Of a stretch of DNA of 37,503 bases, positions 872-37,503 are shown piece by piece. Numbering within the stretch: the stretch's first letter is position 1; every line of letters starts with the position of its first letter. Below the pieces are notes generated by a model that saw only the letters and a list, made by a program, of their open reading frames with translations, made no database searches and was not told the DNA's origin. Source of the DNA: a virus (Duplodnaviria; Caudoviricetes); IMG/VR virus record IMGVR_UViG_3300012667_000202, positions 1 through 37,503 of that record. One strand, 5' to 3'. The position numbers were made by a program, and so were the translations under genes.

Positions 872-1120
872 ATGAGATGCACTTGTTGCAACGCAACATT
901 GACTGATTATGAGGTGACTTTGCGTCATGCAGTATCTAAACAGTTTATTGAGATGTGTTCTTTATGTCTTAAAGACACAGAGATACCTTTACAGGTTCGT
1001 AGTGACTTGTTGTCTGAAGTGGACTTAGATATGGTAGAAACTCTGTTAGACGGTGACGATGCTGAATTCTACGAAGAGCCTGAAGATGACTACTACAAAG
1101 ACATTTGGGATGAACGATGA
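872..1120 (+). CDS. Zn-finger protein with acidic tail
   Basis: CTCC...CSLC, AAGGAG RBS, D/E-rich C-terminus. Confidence 0.75.
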   Translation: MRCTCCNATLTDYEVTLRHAVSKQFIEMCSLCLKDTEIPLQVRSDLLSEVDLDMVETLLDGDDAEFYEEPEDDYYKDIWDER

Positions 1121-1129
1121 ACACTTCAG

Positions 1130-1215
1130 CCCATTACAGTCTATATAGACCTATGATGACACTCTTTAGAGAAACCACTACATCAAGAAACAATCTAAAG
1201 ATAGAACTATGTCGT
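1130..1215 (-). ncRNA. Candidate trans-acting sRNA antisense to the late leader (3' end uncertain)
   Basis: Lies directly downstream of a perfect leftward promoter, has no credible ORF and carries the 24-nt complement of the terS leader. Confidence 0.45.
1182..1205. repeat. 24-bp repeat, inverted copy of 34055-34078
   Basis: ATCAAGAAACAATCTAAAGATAGA vs reverse complement ATCAAGAAACAATCTAACGATAGA (23/24). Confidence 0.9.
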
Positions 1216-1221
1216 AAGAGC

Positions 1222-1250
1222 ATTATACACAGAGTTGTAAATGTTGTCAA
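1222..1250 (-). promoter_or_regulatory. Perfect-consensus sigma70 promoter, leftward
   Basis: TTGACA-17 nt-TATAAT on the minus strand. Confidence 0.85.
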
Positions 1251-1273
1251 GAACTTTATTTTGTCTAAACCTA

Positions 1274-1303
1274 TTGACTTTTTGTTCTTGTTTAATTTAC
1301 ATT
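1274..1303 (+). promoter_or_regulatory. sigma70 promoter for the replication operon
   Basis: TTGACT-18 nt-TACATT upstream of AAGGAG RBS; divergent from 1222-1250. Confidence 0.65.
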
Positions 1304-1325
1304 GTCTTAACACAAAGGAGTAATT

Positions 1326-1490
1326 ATGATTCAATTTATGGAAATGACACCACAAGAAGCTAAAGAAGCACACAATCACTTCATACTTCATGACATGGCA
1401 GACCTATGTATCAGCCAAGGTATTGAACCGACATTAGAAGAATTGATTGATTTGATTAACAGTAAACTAGATAACTTAGAGCCTGTATGA
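1326..1490 (+). CDS. Hypothetical protein, 54 aa (MIQFMEMTPQ...)
   Basis: Read manually; AAGGAG RBS; ATGA coupling to next gene. Confidence 0.75.
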   Translation: MIQFMEMTPQEAKEAHNHFILHDMADLCISQGIEPTLEELIDLINSKLDNLEPV

Positions 1491-11866: not shown

Positions 11867-11896
11867 GGCAGCCTCTTTATGGGGCTGTCTTTTTTT
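11867..11896 (+). terminator. Rho-independent terminator at the convergence of the two arms
   Basis: GGCAGCCTC-TTTAT-GGGGCTGTC followed by T7; extra hairpin GTCTC-CTTCC-GAGAC at 11846-11860. Confidence 0.85.
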
Positions 11897-22216: not shown

Positions 22217-22245
22217 AGTCTAGCACACTTTTAGCGTTGTGTCAA
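22217..22245 (-). promoter_or_regulatory. sigma70 promoter with extended -10
   Basis: TTGACA-17-TAGACT preceded by TGc. Confidence 0.7.
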
Positions 22246-29760: not shown

Positions 29761-30001
29761 CGCTGTCTCCCGACATGAGTTGTTCATAGGACTGTTCTGA
29801 AACACTCTTGAGGCTTAGAATCCAGTTAAGAATGTCTAATTGACCTCGTTTTAGGTGTAATTCAGCTTCATTCTGAATCGGGAGAACTTGATTGAGTGCA
29901 TCAAACATCTTCTGTGCATCTTCCATCAAGTCCTGCCAACCAGGTGTTGAAAACAGGCTGAACCTGTCCTCGTAATACTGTTGTAACTGCTTATCTACCA
30001 T
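29753..30001 (-). CDS. Conserved head-region hypothetical protein
   Basis: AAGGA RBS before MVDKQ; F.TPGW, KRGQLDIL; between portal and scaffold. Confidence 0.75.
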   Translation of the reverse strand: MVDKQLQQYYEDRFSLFSTPGWQDLMEDAQKMFDALNQVLPIQNEAELHLKRGQLDILNWILSLKSVSEQSYEQLMSGDSGA

Positions 30002-30051
30002 TCTTTGTCCTTTTGTTGGAGAATGTTGTATTAAAACCACATTATTTCGTC

Positions 30052-30080
30052 AGTCTACCACAACTAACAGAAAAAGTCAA
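30052..30080 (-). promoter_or_regulatory. sigma70 promoter with extended -10 for scaffold/capsid genes
   Basis: TTGACT-17-TAGACT preceded by TGg. Confidence 0.75.
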
Positions 30081-30085
30081 GCTAT

Positions 30086-32089
30086 TTATTGCATATTTGA
30101 CTGTTTTTGCATCTGCATCTCAACAATCTTGCCTTTGTTGTTAATGTCTTTCTCTTTGAGCATCAAATCAGCAATTCTGGCTCTCTTTTCAAACTCATTG
30201 TCCTGTCCTTGACCGTCAATGTTGGTAGAAAGGGAGCTAATGACCTTAGCTTTTAGCTCTTCAGGTAACAATTGTGTCTCAACAACTGTCTTCTGAGCTT
30301 CTGCTTGGTCTCTTTGTGCTCTTGCTTGTAGAGAAGCAGTAGTTGCTTGAGCCTGTTCCATCTGCATTTGAGCTTGCATCTGAGCCATTTGAGCTTGTTG
30401 TGGGTCAGGCTGAGACATTTGTGTCAAAGCTTGTTCCATTTCAGCTCTGTTAGACAAGCTAGAGTTAGCAATAATGCCCTTAAGGATGATTGGTAACACT
30501 GGAGTATTAGGTCCAAGAGTCTGTAACAAGCCAATTAACTGCTGTTGTTCGTACTCACGAGCCATAATACCCAAAGTAGCTGTCGGTATAAACTTCATAT
30601 CTACAGAAGGGTAACGCTCAGGGTCAAACTGCATATAGCGGAAAGCCACTTTCTTAATCAAAGGAACTAAGAAGTCTTCTTGGAAGTTTGTGAGTGTACG
30701 CTTGTACTTCTTGATAATGCCAGCCATAGCCATAGACATACCAGCACCAGAAGCATCACGAGTAGCTTGAGATACCATGCCTTGGCTGTCTAAAGTGCCA
30801 GTAGCTTGTAGCAACATACGCTCAAAGTTCTGTGATGTTTGAATGTTGTTCTGGTCTGTTTGTCCAAACTTGAACGGCATCAAGATTTCACTAGGAGCAC
30901 CATTCGTAAGAATAGCTTTACCAGGCTTAACTTCAAACTTAGCACCACGAGGTAAGCGAGTAGCGTCCATCGCAATCATCGGAGCTGTGGTCAATGCCAA
31001 TGAGTCTAAGTGACTGCGTAGCTGTGCATCAATAGCTTTTTGCATATTGTATGCTTTTTCTACTGTACCACGACCCCAGAAGCGGTTAGGCACTGTATCA
31101 TCCTGATAAGCTACAATTGGACGGTCTTTCATCATGTAAGGATTAGCTTCTGCTTTGAGCAACAAACCATCGTTAGCAATAACAATGATAGCTTCTACTA
31201 AGTCAGAATAGCTGTCAGCAGTGCTTGACTCAGGGAACAAGTCAACAACTTCTTCACCTTCGTTCTCTAACTGCTCTAGGTACTCACGAGGAACAAGACC
31301 ATAGTAAGTTAATAGTTTAACTTTGTCATCTTGGTATTGAACAATCTCTTGTGTTGGCTCTAGGTCATCATCCAAACCATAACCTTGGACATCTACCTTA
31401 CGATAGATACCCTTTTCCATGCCTTCTACCACTTTGTGAATAGACACAAACTTCTCAACAGCAACACCCATTGCATCTTCAATAGAAGTAGCGTTAGGGT
31501 CAATCAAGAAGTTCTTAGGGTTAACAGGAGTTACTTTAACACAGAAATATTCCTTCTCTTGCACACCGTAAGCAGCTTGCATTGAGCCAGGAATAGGCTG
31601 AGTAGACGGAATATACTCTTTTTCTTGTTTAACAGTCAACTCACCAATACCAGTACCATAAATCTCAGCCATCAACTCAATCTGGTCGATAGACTTACGA
31701 ATCTTATGTTTTTCTAGGTCTTCACGCAATAGAGTACGGATTTGCTCAACATCCATTGGATTACCGTTCATATCTAAGACATCATCTTTAATGTCAAAGT
31801 ATTCACCGTTACCAAAGATAGCTTCCATGATTTCAGCATGGCGAGTCTCTACTGCTTGTTGTGTTGCTGGGGAAATTAAGCGACTACGCTCTGACTCACG
31901 AGTCTTGTCTTCAGAAGCCCACACACCACGGAAGATACGCTCGTATTCTTTCCAGTCTTCTAAGTAGTTCTCGTCACGGTGGTCTCTCCAACGGTCGCAG
32001 TGTCCAACAACAAAACCAACTAACTCTCTGTCAGATTCTGTCGGAGTGTCCCATTGTACACCTTCGTTATTGTCTTTCATCTCAGCCAT
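30086..32089 (-). CDS. Portal protein
   Basis: 667 aa; YGTGIG, FLIDP.A, FWGRG, Gln-rich barrel-like C-terminus; follows terL. Confidence 0.9.
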   Translation of the reverse strand: MAEMKDNNEGVQWDTPTESDRELVGFVVGHCDRWRDHRDENYLEDWKEYERIFRGVWASEDKTRESERSRLISPATQQAVETRHAEIMEAIFGNGEYFDIKDDVLDMNGNPMDVEQIRTLLREDLEKHKIRKSIDQIELMAEIYGTGIGELTVKQEKEYIPSTQPIPGSMQAAYGVQEKEYFCVKVTPVNPKNFLIDPNATSIEDAMGVAVEKFVSIHKVVEGMEKGIYRKVDVQGYGLDDDLEPTQEIVQYQDDKVKLLTYYGLVPREYLEQLENEGEEVVDLFPESSTADSYSDLVEAIIVIANDGLLLKAEANPYMMKDRPIVAYQDDTVPNRFWGRGTVEKAYNMQKAIDAQLRSHLDSLALTTAPMIAMDATRLPRGAKFEVKPGKAILTNGAPSEILMPFKFGQTDQNNIQTSQNFERMLLQATGTLDSQGMVSQATRDASGAGMSMAMAGIIKKYKRTLTNFQEDFLVPLIKKVAFRYMQFDPERYPSVDMKFIPTATLGIMAREYEQQQLIGLLQTLGPNTPVLPIILKGIIANSSLSNRAEMEQALTQMSQPDPQQAQMAQMQAQMQMEQAQATTASLQARAQRDQAEAQKTVVETQLLPEELKAKVISSLSTNIDGQGQDNEFEKRARIADLMLKEKDINNKGKIVEMQMQKQSNMQ

Positions 32090-32340: not shown

Positions 32341-33600
32341 TTAATAGCCAGCAATTACATCCATAGCTTCCCAGTCATCTTCGTCATCGTCTGCGAAGTA
32401 ACTGGTCACCGCCAATTGGTCAATATAGCTTAAAGCGTCTGGTAAGTCGTCATGTACTCCAGCAGTAGGGAACATCAACAACTGGTCAACAAACTCATCA
32501 AAGTCTTCTTCAGCATTCAGAACAACTCTGCCATGCTCAAAACGACCCTGTAAAGCCCAGACAACCCTGTCTACCTTTTTCTTGTTACCGTGCGTCAAGT
32601 CTGCAATATGTGCGTAGCAGTTGTTCTTTCGCATCAAATCACTGAGGTACGGTAACACTGCATTCTTCAAAGCACCTCGTTCAATACCGACTGCCATTGG
32701 CTCATATTCTCTGATGTTCTTTAAGATGTTCACTGCAGTGGTCTGAATATCCCAACGACCAGCTTCAATCTTATCCACATACCATACACCGTCATCAGTG
32801 ACTTTAACCACAGCAATTGCTGATTGGTCAAGTCTCTTTTTACTGTTACCAGCAGATTTAGCTACTTCTTCAAAACCAGCTAAGTCCACTGCGATGTACC
32901 AAGAACCATGAGGCGGCTCTTCACCAAACTTAATCCATTCTTCTTTGAACAACCCTGCACCAGCGTTGTTGAAGGAAGACATATATTCTTGATTGAACGC
33001 AAAGCTGGACAGAGTCCTCTTAGCCGCTTCAATCTCTTTCTTGTCTATCGTCTCATTGTCAGCCGTGGTAAAGTGCCAAGACTTCCAATCTTCATCTTCT
33101 CCACTTTGCCCTAATTGATACCAGTCATAGAAGTGGTTTCTTCCTGACGGAGTAGAGATAAACATGGCTCTACCTTTTTTGTCAGACAAAGCAGCACGAA
33201 GCACCTTCTCCCAAATCTCTGGCTTAATAAAAGCTACCTCGTCCATTACCAAGTATGTCAAAGACACACCACGGAGAGAGTCTTGGTTATCAGCACCACG
33301 AACTAATATCTTACGACCATTAACAAGAGTAATCTCTAAATTGTTAATGTGTGCAGACTTGATAATAGGACGACCTAAGTCCATCAACAAGTCCCACATA
33401 ATTGTTCTTGCTTGTCCGAGTGTCGGTGCAACGTACATAACGCTACTTCCCTCTGGACAATTCAAACCTTCAATCAACAGCGTTACTGCAGATAATCGTG
33501 ACTTACCGCAACGACGACCAGCAGCAATGACCTTAAATCGTGTAGGGTCTTTGAAGACCTCTTTCTGCCAATTCAGCAATGCGAAGTTGAGTTCAGCCAT
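32341..33600 (-). CDS. terL: Terminase large subunit
   Basis: Walker A AGRRCGKS, Walker B LVMDE, ISTPSG, nuclease VDLAG and HDDLPDA. Confidence 0.96.
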   Translation of the reverse strand: MAELNFALLNWQKEVFKDPTRFKVIAAGRRCGKSRLSAVTLLIEGLNCPEGSSVMYVAPTLGQARTIMWDLLMDLGRPIIKSAHINNLEITLVNGRKILVRGADNQDSLRGVSLTYLVMDEVAFIKPEIWEKVLRAALSDKKGRAMFISTPSGRNHFYDWYQLGQSGEDEDWKSWHFTTADNETIDKKEIEAAKRTLSSFAFNQEYMSSFNNAGAGLFKEEWIKFGEEPPHGSWYIAVDLAGFEEVAKSAGNSKKRLDQSAIAVVKVTDDGVWYVDKIEAGRWDIQTTAVNILKNIREYEPMAVGIERGALKNAVLPYLSDLMRKNNCYAHIADLTHGNKKKVDRVVWALQGRFEHGRVVLNAEEDFDEFVDQLLMFPTAGVHDDLPDALSYIDQLAVTSYFADDDEDDWEAMDVIAGY

Positions 33601-33988
33601 TGCTTGTATCCTCTACATCCGTAATACTAGCTTCAATGACTTCTGCAGTTTCTACAGTCGGACTACTGATACCTGTAATGTTAATACTAATCTGTGGAAC
33701 TGAACCACCCTGTTTATCCTTGTCAAAGTAAGACAAAGGTAATACCCTGTCAATACACATCTTAAGAGCTGCACCCTGAACTGGATGCCCATCCGTCATG
33801 GCAATCTCTACAATCTTATTAATGACTTTATCGCCTGTGGTTGCTAACAACCGTGCTTTCAACTCTGCTATACGACCTGAATCACCAGCAGGTCTACCGA
33901 CCACACCCCTACTGCCCTTCTTCTTAGCTTTGACAGCAGCTTTAGGAGGTCGTCCTTTACGGACTTTTACTTCGTTAGTGTCAGACAT
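33593..33988 (-). CDS. terS: Terminase small subunit
   Basis: GRPPK/GRPAG, ALKMCIDRVLP, ISINITG; directly upstream of terL. Confidence 0.75.
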   Translation of the reverse strand: MSDTNEVKVRKGRPPKAAVKAKKKGSRGVVGRPAGDSGRIAELKARLLATTGDKVINKIVEIAMTDGHPVQGAALKMCIDRVLPLSYFDKDKQGGSVPQISINITGISSPTVETAEVIEASITDVEDTSNG

Positions 33989-34054
33989 CGTATCCTTTAC
34001 CCCAACTAAGGGAAGACAAATTAAAAACTTTAAGACCTATATATCTATATAGAC

Positions 34055-34078
34055 TCTATCGTTAGATTGTTTCTTGAT
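34055..34078. repeat. 24-bp repeat, inverted copy of 1182-1205, inside the late leader
   Basis: TCTATCGTTAGATTGTTTCTTGAT. Confidence 0.9.
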
Positions 34079-34218
34079 ATCGCTATCAACTTATTTATAA
34101 GAGGTTACTACTTCTTGTTGTTCGTAACCTAACCTACGGTAGTCTCTATATGGTGTCTCCCGACAGGGGGCTTTATAGATACTATATAGTGTGTGTTGCT
34201 GTTTGTTCAATGTAGGCG

Positions 34219-34247
34219 AGTGTAGCATACTTTTGAGAGTTTGTCAA
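34219..34247 (-). promoter_or_regulatory. Late-arm sigma70 promoter with extended -10
   Basis: TTGACA-17-TACACT preceded by TGc; ~225 nt leader to terS. Confidence 0.8.
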
Positions 34248-34349
34248 GCATTATTTTATACTTTATAGACCTAAAGAGCACAGCGGACCTTCATAGGCTT
34301 TATTGGTACTCCGCATGACCTAAAGTGTGCAATGTCCATCACAGCCTTT

Positions 34350-34364
34350 ATAACTTTTAGTTAT
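34350..34364. promoter_or_regulatory. LysR-type operator-like palindrome
   Basis: ATAAC-N5-GTTAT (T-N11-A). Confidence 0.45.
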
Positions 34365-34395
34365 GACATTGTCATTGTTCATTATAGTTCTTTAT

Positions 34396-34408
34396 TATCA
34401 ATTAGTTA
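34396..34408 (+). promoter_or_regulatory. IHF site
   Basis: TATCAATTAGTTA = WATCAANNNNTTR with A/T-rich 5' flank. Confidence 0.55.
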
Positions 34409-34511
34409 CTAACTATCATTGGTGCAGTGCAGTATTGTCTATTTTACCTCTTTTGTGAGCTGTAGAGCCTACCACAACATTACAACAACACAGCCACCCC
34501 CACCCCCCTAT

Positions 34512-34531
34512 GTTAGTTAGTGCTTACTTAC
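34512..34531. promoter_or_regulatory. SlmA-binding-site-like palindrome 1
   Basis: GTTA-GTTAGTGCTTAC-TTAC; core fits GTnAGYRCTnAC. Confidence 0.6.
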
Positions 34532-34550
34532 ATCAACATAGGCTTTATAG

Positions 34551-34570
34551 GTTAGTAAGGACTCACTTCA
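34551..34570. promoter_or_regulatory. SlmA-binding-site-like palindrome 2
   Basis: GTTA-GTAAGGACTCAC-TTCA; core 10/12 to GTGAGTACTCAC. Confidence 0.6.
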
Positions 34571-34582
34571 CAGGTCATCACA

Positions 34583-34602
34583 GTTAATGATAATCATTCT
34601 CA
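34583..34602. promoter_or_regulatory. Fur box 1
   Basis: GTTAATGATAATCATTCTC, 17/19 to GATAATGATAATCATTATC. Confidence 0.8.
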
Positions 34603-34659
34603 ATTACATAGGGTGTGTATGGCAGTGATGCACCTCTATTGACATACCTAGCCAATTGA

Positions 34660-34679
34660 CTAAGTGAGTAGCTACTAAC
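34660..34679. promoter_or_regulatory. SlmA-binding-site-like palindrome 3
   Basis: CTAA-GTGAGTAGCTAC-TAAC; core 9/12 to GTGAGTACTCAC. Confidence 0.5.
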
Positions 34680-34707
34680 ATCACAGACTAGATAGACCAT
34701 AGCTAAA

Positions 34708-34727
34708 TGATAATGATTCTCATTAAC
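34708..34727. promoter_or_regulatory. Fur box 2
   Basis: Reverse complement GTTAATGAGAATCATTATC, 17/19 to consensus. Confidence 0.8.
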
Positions 34728-34767
34728 TCTTATATAAGACATAAGATATAAGACAAATAACATAAGA
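34728..34767. promoter_or_regulatory. SdhR (GntR-family)-like operator/ATAAGA repeats
   Basis: TCTTATATAAGACATAAGA followed by further ATAAGA units. Confidence 0.55.
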
Positions 34768-34855
34768 GTCTGAGCTGAGGGATATAACAAAAGGTAATAA
34801 GCTATATAACTTTAAAGTCTAAAGAAATGAAGATTATTTGTGGTTTAGGGTGTTT

Positions 34856-34888
34856 TTGTAAGATAACTGTAAGTTTCATGTTGATAAT
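34856..34888 (+). promoter_or_regulatory. Candidate early promoter with OmpR/PhoB-type direct repeat in place of -35
   Basis: TGTAAG-N5-TGTAAG (11-bp period), then GATAAT 9 nt downstream. Confidence 0.45.
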
Positions 34889-34938
34889 AGAGGGTAAGCA
34901 ACACAGTTAAACAACACACATACACAGGAGTTTTAAAC

Positions 34939-37004: not shown

Positions 37005-37237
37005 GAGAAGATATCCTAGAAATACTGCAACAATACAAAGCTGAGATATTAAAAGGGCATGAGGAGTTTGTCGCTCCTGATTGGTGGCATTATCTTGATG
37101 ATGTTGCAATCAATGTCCACGATTGGGAAGAATCTGGAAGGGTTGTTGTTGCTATCTATGATTTATATGAGGATAGTGGACCTGTTGATTTGTTAGATTC
37201 TTATGATTTTACAGTAGAGGAGTTTAAAAGCCTATGA
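37001..37237 (+). CDS. Early acidic hypothetical protein
   Basis: GAGGTGG RBS; its last 55 nt form the repeat. Confidence 0.75.
   Translation: MREDILEILQQYKAEILKGHEEFVAPDWWHYLDDVAINVHDWEESGRVVVAIYDLYEDSGPVDLLDSYDFTVEEFKSL
37183..37237. repeat. Exact 55-nt direct repeat, copy 2
   Basis: Identical to 1-55. Confidence 0.95.
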
Positions 37238-37503
37238 GCTCAGTTACCCAAGAAGTTATATCACTACTCAAACATCGCAATATGACAGGAAGAGAGCTTG
37301 TATTAGAGCTAGGTGTAGAAGATGAGCCTAATCTTGTTCATTGTGTCTTAACGGCTCTAAAGAAGCGTAAAGCGGTTGTTTGTGTCGGTAAGTCTATTGA
37401 GGTCACAGTCACAGGCAAAAGTAGGCTTGTATCGCTCTATGGCTATCAAGAACCGCCTAAACCTTACACACCTAGAAAGCAAGGCAAGAAAAAGCGATAC
37501 TAT
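37234..37503 (+). CDS. Putative winged-helix protein (variant B), truncated by the window end
   Basis: Read manually: MSSVTQEVISLLKHRNMTGRELVLEL...VLTALKKRKAVVCVGK...RLVSLY; aligns with 52..423. Confidence 0.7.
   Translation, partial: MSSVTQEVISLLKHRNMTGRELVLELGVEDEPNLVHCVLTALKKRKAVVCVGKSIEVTVTGKSRLVSLYGYQEPPKPYTPRKQGKKKRYY

Follow-up and report, generated by a model that had tools for sequence, protein, structure and literature searches.

Antisense and leader-directed RNAs of phages

Attenuators of the P4 CI RNA and pT181 types work through an RNA that pairs with a nascent leader upstream of a hairpin, and they need an intrinsic terminator. Trans-acting phage RNAs that act on phage mRNAs control lysogeny regulators, as far as the available sections of one review go (PMC12197685). 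The c4 antisense RNA of the temperate phages P1 and P7 acts in trans by pairing with a phage mRNA, that of an antirepressor, at its ribosome site through sequences displayed in loops, and its sequence-specific variants could define immunity groups (PMC12197685). P22 sar, lambda OOP, and lambda aQ are made from counter-directed phage promoters, act on overlapping or adjacent regulator mRNAs, and lower lytic function; aQ delays late genes, and OOP acts through RNase III (excerpts of PMC12197685). IsrK of Gifsy-1, a short isoform of its own target transcript, binds and refolds a structured leader in trans and thereby activates translation, according to the consulted part of PMC4825925. Antisense and leader-derived RNAs have been reported in lytic Pseudomonas phages, with targets not assigned in the excerpted account (PMC10914365). 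We found no RNA that targets a terminase leader in the literature searched, which lay outside subscription journals; the available portions of PMC3985653 and bioRxiv 10.64898/2026.09.22.753630 hold nothing bearing on a terminase-leader RNA.

The locus described here lies in a 37.5-kb linear virus record, which was analysed over its full 37,503 nucleotides and is called the window below. It resembles c4 in that a phage-encoded, putatively trans-acting RNA is predicted to pair with a phage mRNA and occurs in sequence-specific variants. Unlike c4, its target is a terminase leader, and the window gave no integrase or repressor match in PHROGs and no Rfam match by covariance models (none at gathering score in the window, none at E of 1 or below around the two loci). 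It shares a counter-directed phage promoter with sar, OOP, and aQ, whereas those RNAs act on overlapping or adjacent mRNAs and this one sits at a separate locus with an imperfect match. The refolding of a structured leader in trans, as proposed here, is what IsrK does. As with P4 CI RNA and pT181, the predicted pairing falls on a leader upstream of a hairpin (a leader helix that we call P4), but the U-tract after that hairpin is not conserved here.

The window has two opposed arms. The plus-strand arm encodes a primase-helicase, a DNA polymerase, and a ribonucleotide reductase, and the minus-strand arm encodes terminase, portal, capsid, tail, and lysin; the phage family is uncultured and lytic. 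Cobaviruses and other T7-supergroup phages likewise exist without an RNA polymerase, and the cobavirus layout, as given in the available part of its account, matches the window in its opposed arms, primase-helicase, DNA polymerase, ribonucleotide reductase, missing RNA polymerase, and inter-arm terminator (PMC6775973). Unlike the cobavirus group, the window has its top terL, helicase, and capsid matches in other phages, all below 60% identity, judged by top matches, and no isolate exceeds 60% identity for any of the three proteins. The consulted part of the cobavirus account mentions no RNA of this kind (PMC6775973). As an earlier sequence-only reading of this DNA had stated, no RNA polymerase, sigma factor, or Q protein is recognisable: there was no match among 67 ORFs (PHROGs) and 29 small ORFs (Pfam), most of the small ORFs being unannotated. 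The sole hint of a host is L439, a 4.5-kb contig binned in a Burkholderiaceae MAG, with terL at 90% identity.

A perfect promoter reads against its neighbours into non-coding DNA

The features of the RNA locus are as follows.

872..1120, plus strand: 82-aa four-cysteine protein with an acidic tail, of no known family
1141..1148, no strand: CTATATAG palindrome, one of three window copies (1141, plus 34045 and 34182 in the terS leader)
1141..1215, minus strand: predicted non-coding RNA, 5' part, with a start predicted near 1215; conserved non-coding alignment
1155..1172, minus strand: a further block of weaker complementarity, to leader nt 53-70 (34160-34143); it runs colinear with the main one and is not significant alone
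1178..1211, minus strand: principal antisense block (core 1182-1205), with the short self-pairing stem ACAT/ATGT on its flanks
1222..1250, minus strand: sigma70 promoter TTGACA-17-TATAAT, 12/12, no extended -10 TG, directed against the neighbouring genes
1274..1303, plus strand: candidate replication-operon promoter (TTGACT, weak -10, no TG), back to back with the RNA promoter

The leftward TTGACA-17-TATAAT promoter at 1250-1222 that the sequence-only reading had called perfect matches the consensus at 12/12 positions and is the sole perfect sigma70 promoter in the window; simulated genomes average 0.023 each. It is followed by an A/T-rich stretch and adjoins the replication genes, and a site similar to the candidate replication-operon promoter occurs at equal spacing in most of the 27 genomes inspected. 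The same reading had seen no credible ORF beneath the promoter, and we agree: because the two overlapping ORFs there, 1117-1323 (+) and 1134-1391 (-), have no PHROG match and relatives carry 1-nt indels at the locus, we regard it as non-coding. The predicted RNA is not unusually stable when folded from the window (z = 0.43), RNAalifold on a MAFFT alignment of 26 type-1 RNAs returned no consensus structure, and the four pairs of its stem, invariant in 26/26, lack covariation support. None of 20 public sequencing runs, compared as contigs, shared half of the sequence words; among the pieces listed from four metatranscriptomes none covered 1130-1250, and four other runs were of doubtful type or probably DNA. 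These last two sets have no bearing on expression.

Since no intrinsic terminator was found for the RNA within 315 nt in 8/9 genomes, the transcript may be a long antisense RNA. If so extended, it would run antisense to the 3' end of the cysteine-protein gene, which in the window lies 95 nt downstream on the other strand and which stands beside the locus in 44/44 paired genomes (and at 21/25 distant loci, some of them near-duplicates). The missing terminator and this constant neighbour, together with the precedents of lambda OOP and aQ (PMC12197685, in part), are consistent with a transcript that mainly silences the cysteine-protein gene and other early genes in cis, its match to the leader being a leftover of common descent. 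We consider this account very doubtful as the main role, because silencing in cis needs no leader match and leaves unexplained the eight matched changes in one relative described below; a cis-antisense role can nevertheless coexist with the explanation that we prefer.

The cysteine protein itself has 302 cluster representatives at E of 0.001 or below and no Pfam, PHROGs, PDB, or fold match, and it is a candidate regulator at the boundary of the early and replication genes. The idea that it is a late activator like P2 Ogr was unsupported in Pfam, PHROGs, PDB sequence, and fold searches.

The terminase operon begins with a structured leader

The late locus comprises the following features.

34219..34247, minus strand: terS (late) promoter, 10/12, with extended -10 TG
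33989..34212, minus strand: structured 224-nt leader of the terS-terL-portal operon
34048..34082, minus strand: target zone, core 34055-34078, the leader's most variable segment
34032..34056, minus strand: P4, a weak A/U-rich hairpin immediately downstream of the target, with an A/U spacer behind it
33991..34018, minus strand: bulged hairpin over the terS ribosome-binding site
33593..33988, minus strand: putative small terminase (terS), first gene of the target operon, assigned by position
32341-33600, minus strand: terL (PHROGs)
30086-32089, minus strand: portal (PHROGs)

The terS product has no PHROG or Pfam match and owes its name to its position directly upstream of terL; the target in the leader lies 65-90 nt upstream of the terS start codon. 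The leader is structured: three helices are 87% paired across 30 sequences, with a covariation score above those of 500/500 shuffles and of slid controls, although the leader and RNA helices were named by hand and such structures lean towards the sequences they came from. RNAalifold on a MAFFT alignment of the 30 leaders returned 2 pairs only, the window leader alone folds with z = -1.63, and two alternative long-range helices are equally paired (87%) without covariation. The conserved features of the leader are the A/U spacer and the bulged hairpin over the ribosome site. The stability of P4 ranges from -2.4 to -11.4 kcal/mol across leaders, with U-rich tails in some and A-rich tails in others; because the U-tract after it is not conserved, P4 is not a canonical terminator across the family, and no intrinsic terminator was predicted in the window leader. 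The leader alone may already be catalogued, since a survey of viral structured RNAs holds, in its available part, 14 candidates upstream of a terminase domain (PMC10690425). The bulged-hairpin motif also covers the ribosome site of the first capsid-module gene (30002-30022, minus strand, before the gene at 30001); a similar motif stands before this gene in 47/70 upstream regions, and it occurs in distant relatives too. It is possibly a translational operator for a phage protein.

The two loci share an oriented match

The inverted match between 1182-1205 and 34055-34078 spans 24 nt with 23/24 positions complementary (96%), in agreement with the sequence-only reading. It is the sole 24-mer pair with at most one mismatch in the window, and 0/300 Markov-4 simulated genomes had any; the exact 17-nt core alone is not rare, at least 17 nt being reached in 8/60 simulated genomes. 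An extension by G-U pairs to about 30 nt had been proposed, and the duplex so extended has 30 pairs and a predicted energy of -36.9 kcal/mol. For RNA nt 1-45, the best predicted target across the whole window is the terS leader, with a score of 56.5 versus 39.5 for the next. The promoter and the inverted match are beyond chance. Two weaker blocks come next, arranged antiparallel: RNA nt 44-61 faces leader 53-70, and nt 68-75 faces leader 24-31. They count for their order only, because shuffled leaders give 1.3 such blocks per pair. In the best pairs, the 5' end of the RNA pairs into the 5' arm of P4.

A distance of about 4.3 kb on a circular map had been given for the two loci. The contig is linear, so that figure assumes a join; in relatives, however, the RNA promoter lies 2.7-4.7 kb from the terS start, which makes the two loci neighbours across the contig join. 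The record ends are probably an assembly branch, because bases 1-55 recur at 37183-37237, beyond which the final 266 bases (37238-37503) diverge. At the branch at 37237, 52-423 and 37234-37503 begin related ORFs of one cluster, with a winged-helix look by eye and no Pfam match; these are probably alternative alleles or paralogues. The stretch 34250-34900, gene-free and A/T-rich, contains a C-run (34495-34509) as well as an inverted repeat (34577-34614/34696-34733) and likely holds the physical genome ends. A strong terminator hairpin (11867-11889) lies between the convergent arms.

The promoter is conserved within one clade

We gathered 80 helicase loci and judged promoter conservation on the 42 that had at least 2300 nt upstream. 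The divergent promoter over non-coding DNA, which the sequence-only reading knew from the window, is present in all 42 as an opposite-strand promoter matching at 11-12/12 positions, followed by about 85 conserved non-coding bases. Further scans led to 44 RNA/leader pairs, and four of these have weaker RNA promoters (L090 and L156, 10/12; L161 and L162, degenerate -35). A scan for the promoter-plus-motif pattern returned 119 loci, only 13 of them from this phage family.

Distant relatives (helicase 46-66% identical) have a rightward promoter with A/T palindrome arrays at the cysteine-protein locus, and neither a leftward promoter there nor an oriented match to the terS upstream region was found in them; same-sense matches reached p of 0.01 or below in 2/21, both of which also matched in the opposite sense, from A/T palindromes. 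The exception elsewhere in the region is the distant relative L094, whose 12/12 promoter, 3573 nt upstream of terS, points in the late direction over unrelated sequence. It possibly makes an independent RNA, and it was left out of the pair set since its downstream sequence is unrelated and it does not lie beside the cysteine-protein gene. In L096, L097, L091, L114, and L129, arrays of 8-bp A/T palindromes with 11-12 bp spacing follow the cysteine-protein gene and precede terS; they are candidate protein sites for replication or packaging.

RNA and leader change together in some relatives

The sequence-only reading had asked for co-varying complementary pairs in related genomes, and the answer is divided: one relative shows matched change, while pairing is weak in most representatives and a near-twin of the window has its target swapped. 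In L090, 10/32 leader columns differ from the window, for 8/10 of these differences the RNA carries a change that brings back Watson-Crick pairing, and the pair as a whole has 28/32 Watson-Crick pairs. Accessibility-aware prediction of binding gives the L090 RNA -15 kcal/mol with its own leader and -1 to -5 kcal/mol with the other 23 leaders.

We made such binding predictions for 24/44 pairs, chosen to span sequence types, and co-folded 16 pairs. Binding to the own leader averages -8.2, compared with -6.0 +/- 0.5 for permuted pairs, a value reached in 0/20000 permutations of the 24 pairs, in which kin are not independent; in a set of 36 pairs, own pairs likewise exceeded permuted ones (0/10000, again with kin not independent). 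The own leader ranked first or second for 7/24 RNAs (first in L090, L083, L381, and L001; second in the window, L033, and L052). By ungapped block score it came first in 5/30 pairs, with a mean of 18.9 versus 15.3 permuted (p = 0.0003). Strong self-pairing is found in 9/24 representatives, on six branches of the adjacent gene's tree; the terS tree left out L083 and L036. Own binding is weaker than -10 kcal/mol in 15/24 representatives, for many relatives some other site in the available DNA is a better target than the own leader, and a plain identity test gave p of 0.01 or below in only 7/24, two of these via palindromes. In L025 a different segment pairs, RNA nt 39-55.

DNA copying or a co-evolving protein could likewise produce matched change. 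G-U pairs are not enriched over their mirror mismatches (64 versus 55; 78 versus 59, p = 0.12; shuffles 1637 versus 1351), and RNA pairing is therefore not separable from concerted change at the DNA level. We accordingly weighed the idea that the two loci are paralogous DNA elements, either protein sites or a transcription-primed origin with a copy near the genome end, which are kept alike by copying or by a co-evolving protein, the promoter supplying a primer, an R-loop, or a transcription barrier. Several observations are in keeping with it: read on the plus strand, 1141-1212 reproduces the leader in condensed form, as three colinear blocks; CTATATAG-like palindromes form arrays at the two loci even in distant relatives that lack the promoter; the primase-helicase operon follows just downstream of the site, and T7 primes its origin by transcription; and the G-U asymmetry is missing. 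We nevertheless find it unlikely that DNA elements account for the match. The oriented, non-palindromic match occurs only in the promoter-bearing clade, it is inverted relative to the two promoters, and the pairing segments differ by lineage, as in L025, unlike a site of fixed length. Nor does the repeat behave as a fixed-sequence protein site, the outcome that the sequence-only reading had set against its own proposal, since both sides change together and orientation is kept. GC skew, which transcription dominates and which is thus weak evidence, flips sign at the arm boundaries only. Overall, we judge it probable that the RNA pairs with a phage terminase leader.

Targets may be swapped, and RNAs may reach other leaders

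The near-twin L003, whose terS is 99% identical to that of the window, has 12 leader differences, 10 of which fall in the 32-nt target out of 227 nt; this clustering has P = 1.6e-7 on the assumption of independent differences. The same leader also occurs in L082 and L379. Because the differences concentrate there, the target behaves as a swappable cassette, with the caution that the linkage of RNA and leader in metagenomic contigs may be chimeric. Across 33 type-1 pairs mean identity is higher in the RNA core than in the target zone (0.86 versus 0.68), and 11/15 RNAs with weak self-pairing bind some foreign leader at -10 or better.

These three results, the more conserved RNA core, the foreign fits, and the swapped target in an otherwise near-identical leader, would suit an RNA whose main target lies outside its own genome, in the terminase leaders of co-infecting relatives (kin interference, with escape by target swapping) or in host mRNA. 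The c4 RNA sets a precedent in P1/P7 heteroimmunity (PMC12197685, in part). We judge a mainly foreign target decidedly improbable, however: the top fit out of 23 foreign leaders is a maximum over multiple comparisons, some leaders are sticky, metagenomic assembly can yield chimeric contigs, and for the window, L001, and L090 the self-match is the best or close to it. A related idea joins the own and the foreign target. Orthogonal lock-and-key RNAs would hold down terminase both in their own genome and in matching co-infecting kin, leaders would escape by swapping the 30-nt target cassette, and a switch of promoter class would lift the lock late. We think this rather unlikely.

Late promoters share an extended -10 class

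Two further late promoters lie within the minus-strand arm.

30052..30080, minus strand: late promoter serving the capsid module from inside the arm; TG type, with a short leader that does not match the RNA
22217..22245, minus strand: late promoter serving the tail module, likewise internal and of TG type; leader of about 5 nt without an RNA match

The sequence-only reading had cast the RNA as the switch that times the late genes. This part of the proposal finds no support for the full set of late genes: the leaders behind the promoters at 30080 and 22245 are short and do not match the RNA, and so the RNA cannot time all late genes. The extended -10 TG is present in all three late promoters of the window, in the terS promoters of 43/43 paired relatives, and in 53/55 of the capsid-module promoters found among 70 upstream regions, whereas 1/50 RNA promoters have it, plus those of L090 and L156 outside that set. 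The early and replication promoters that we inspected in the close clade are mostly without TG. The shared TG class could time the late promoters without any RNA. Established packaging biology makes terminase the late protein that would do most harm ahead of replication, and we infer that the same logic of timing applies to this phage.

According to the available text of PMC7403470, the phage factors gp39 and AsiA inhibit promoters of the -10/-35 type, and extended -10 promoters are spared. The late promoters of the window are thus like the late or middle extended -10 promoters of P23-45 (gp39) and T4 (AsiA) that escape a block of sigma region 4, but gp39 and AsiA are protein factors, and in the window we see only the promoter contrast, with no homologue identified (PMC7403470, in part). 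A stand-alone sigma70 region-4 protein of 49-75 aa occurs in 11/44 relatives, and 3/5 of those tested pass the Pfam cut-off; the window gave no Pfam match to such a protein. Examples lie at L161:7493-7642 (-), L066:8507-8653 (+), and L037:8403-8549 (+), and these proteins are possible -35 binders. Read with the promoter contrast, the RNA is presumably made early and switched off late.

An early antisense RNA may hold back the terminase-portal operon

Taken as a single mechanism, we favor an early trans-acting antisense RNA that represses its own phage's terminase-portal operon until late infection, and we tentatively give this reading a probability of about 0.45. The promoter at 1250-1222 would make an early non-coding RNA, whose first 40-75 bases would pair in trans with the structured terminase-portal leader and so hold the operon down until late in infection. 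Repression might proceed by RNase III cutting of the 25-30 bp duplex, by refolding of P4, or by blocked ribosome entry at the A/U spacer. Release would follow when a phage factor shuts -35-dependent promoters, so that the RNA decays while the TG promoters keep firing; the capsid and tail modules, on their own promoters, would stay outside RNA control apart from read-through. The promoter, the complementarity with its conservation and matched changes in relatives, the leader helices, and the contrast in promoter class are observed, whereas production of the RNA, its pairing in vivo, the repression, and release through shut-off of -35-dependent promoters are inferred.

The sign of the effect bears closer inspection. 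When the 16 pairs were co-folded, binding of the RNA raised nascent P4 by at least 0.2 in 5/16 leaders and lowered it by at least 0.15 in 3/16, and the ribosome site opened in 4/16 leaders, the window included (0.30 to 0.50). Because these shifts are mixed, folding does not fix the sign, although the predicted opening of the ribosome site would favor activation. The same pairing could then act in the opposite direction, with the RNA accumulating and opening the leader, at P4 or at a long-range helix over the ribosome site, to turn the terminase operon on. Predicted ribosome-site opening in the window, L001, L033, and L172, predicted loss of P4 in L001, L083, and L176, pairing of the RNA 5' end into the P4 5' arm in the best pairs, and the precedent of IsrK (PMC4825925, in part) all speak for activation. 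We still hold it to be an unlikely reading, as an essential activator would hardly tolerate the swapped or decayed targets seen in relatives, a strong promoter that depends on its -35 element is expected to fire early and, on the logic of gp39 and AsiA, to be off late, and no conserved U-tract follows P4. A dispensable brake fits better, both because assemblies with a broken match exist (L003; L082 and L379) and because the RNA would be early and its match can be lost.

What the locus may mean for phages without an RNA polymerase

How T7-supergroup phages that lack an RNA polymerase delay their late functions while using near-consensus host promoters is unexplained for most groups. The locus described here offers a two-part answer, in which an extended -10 class would serve the late genes and an RNA would be aimed at the terminase-portal operon, the one operon whose early expression would cut unreplicated DNA. 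The window and L090 are natural orthogonal pairs, usable for allele swaps without culturing the phage. If the lock-and-key idea were true, such RNAs would amount to an RNA-based heteroimmunity without lysogeny.
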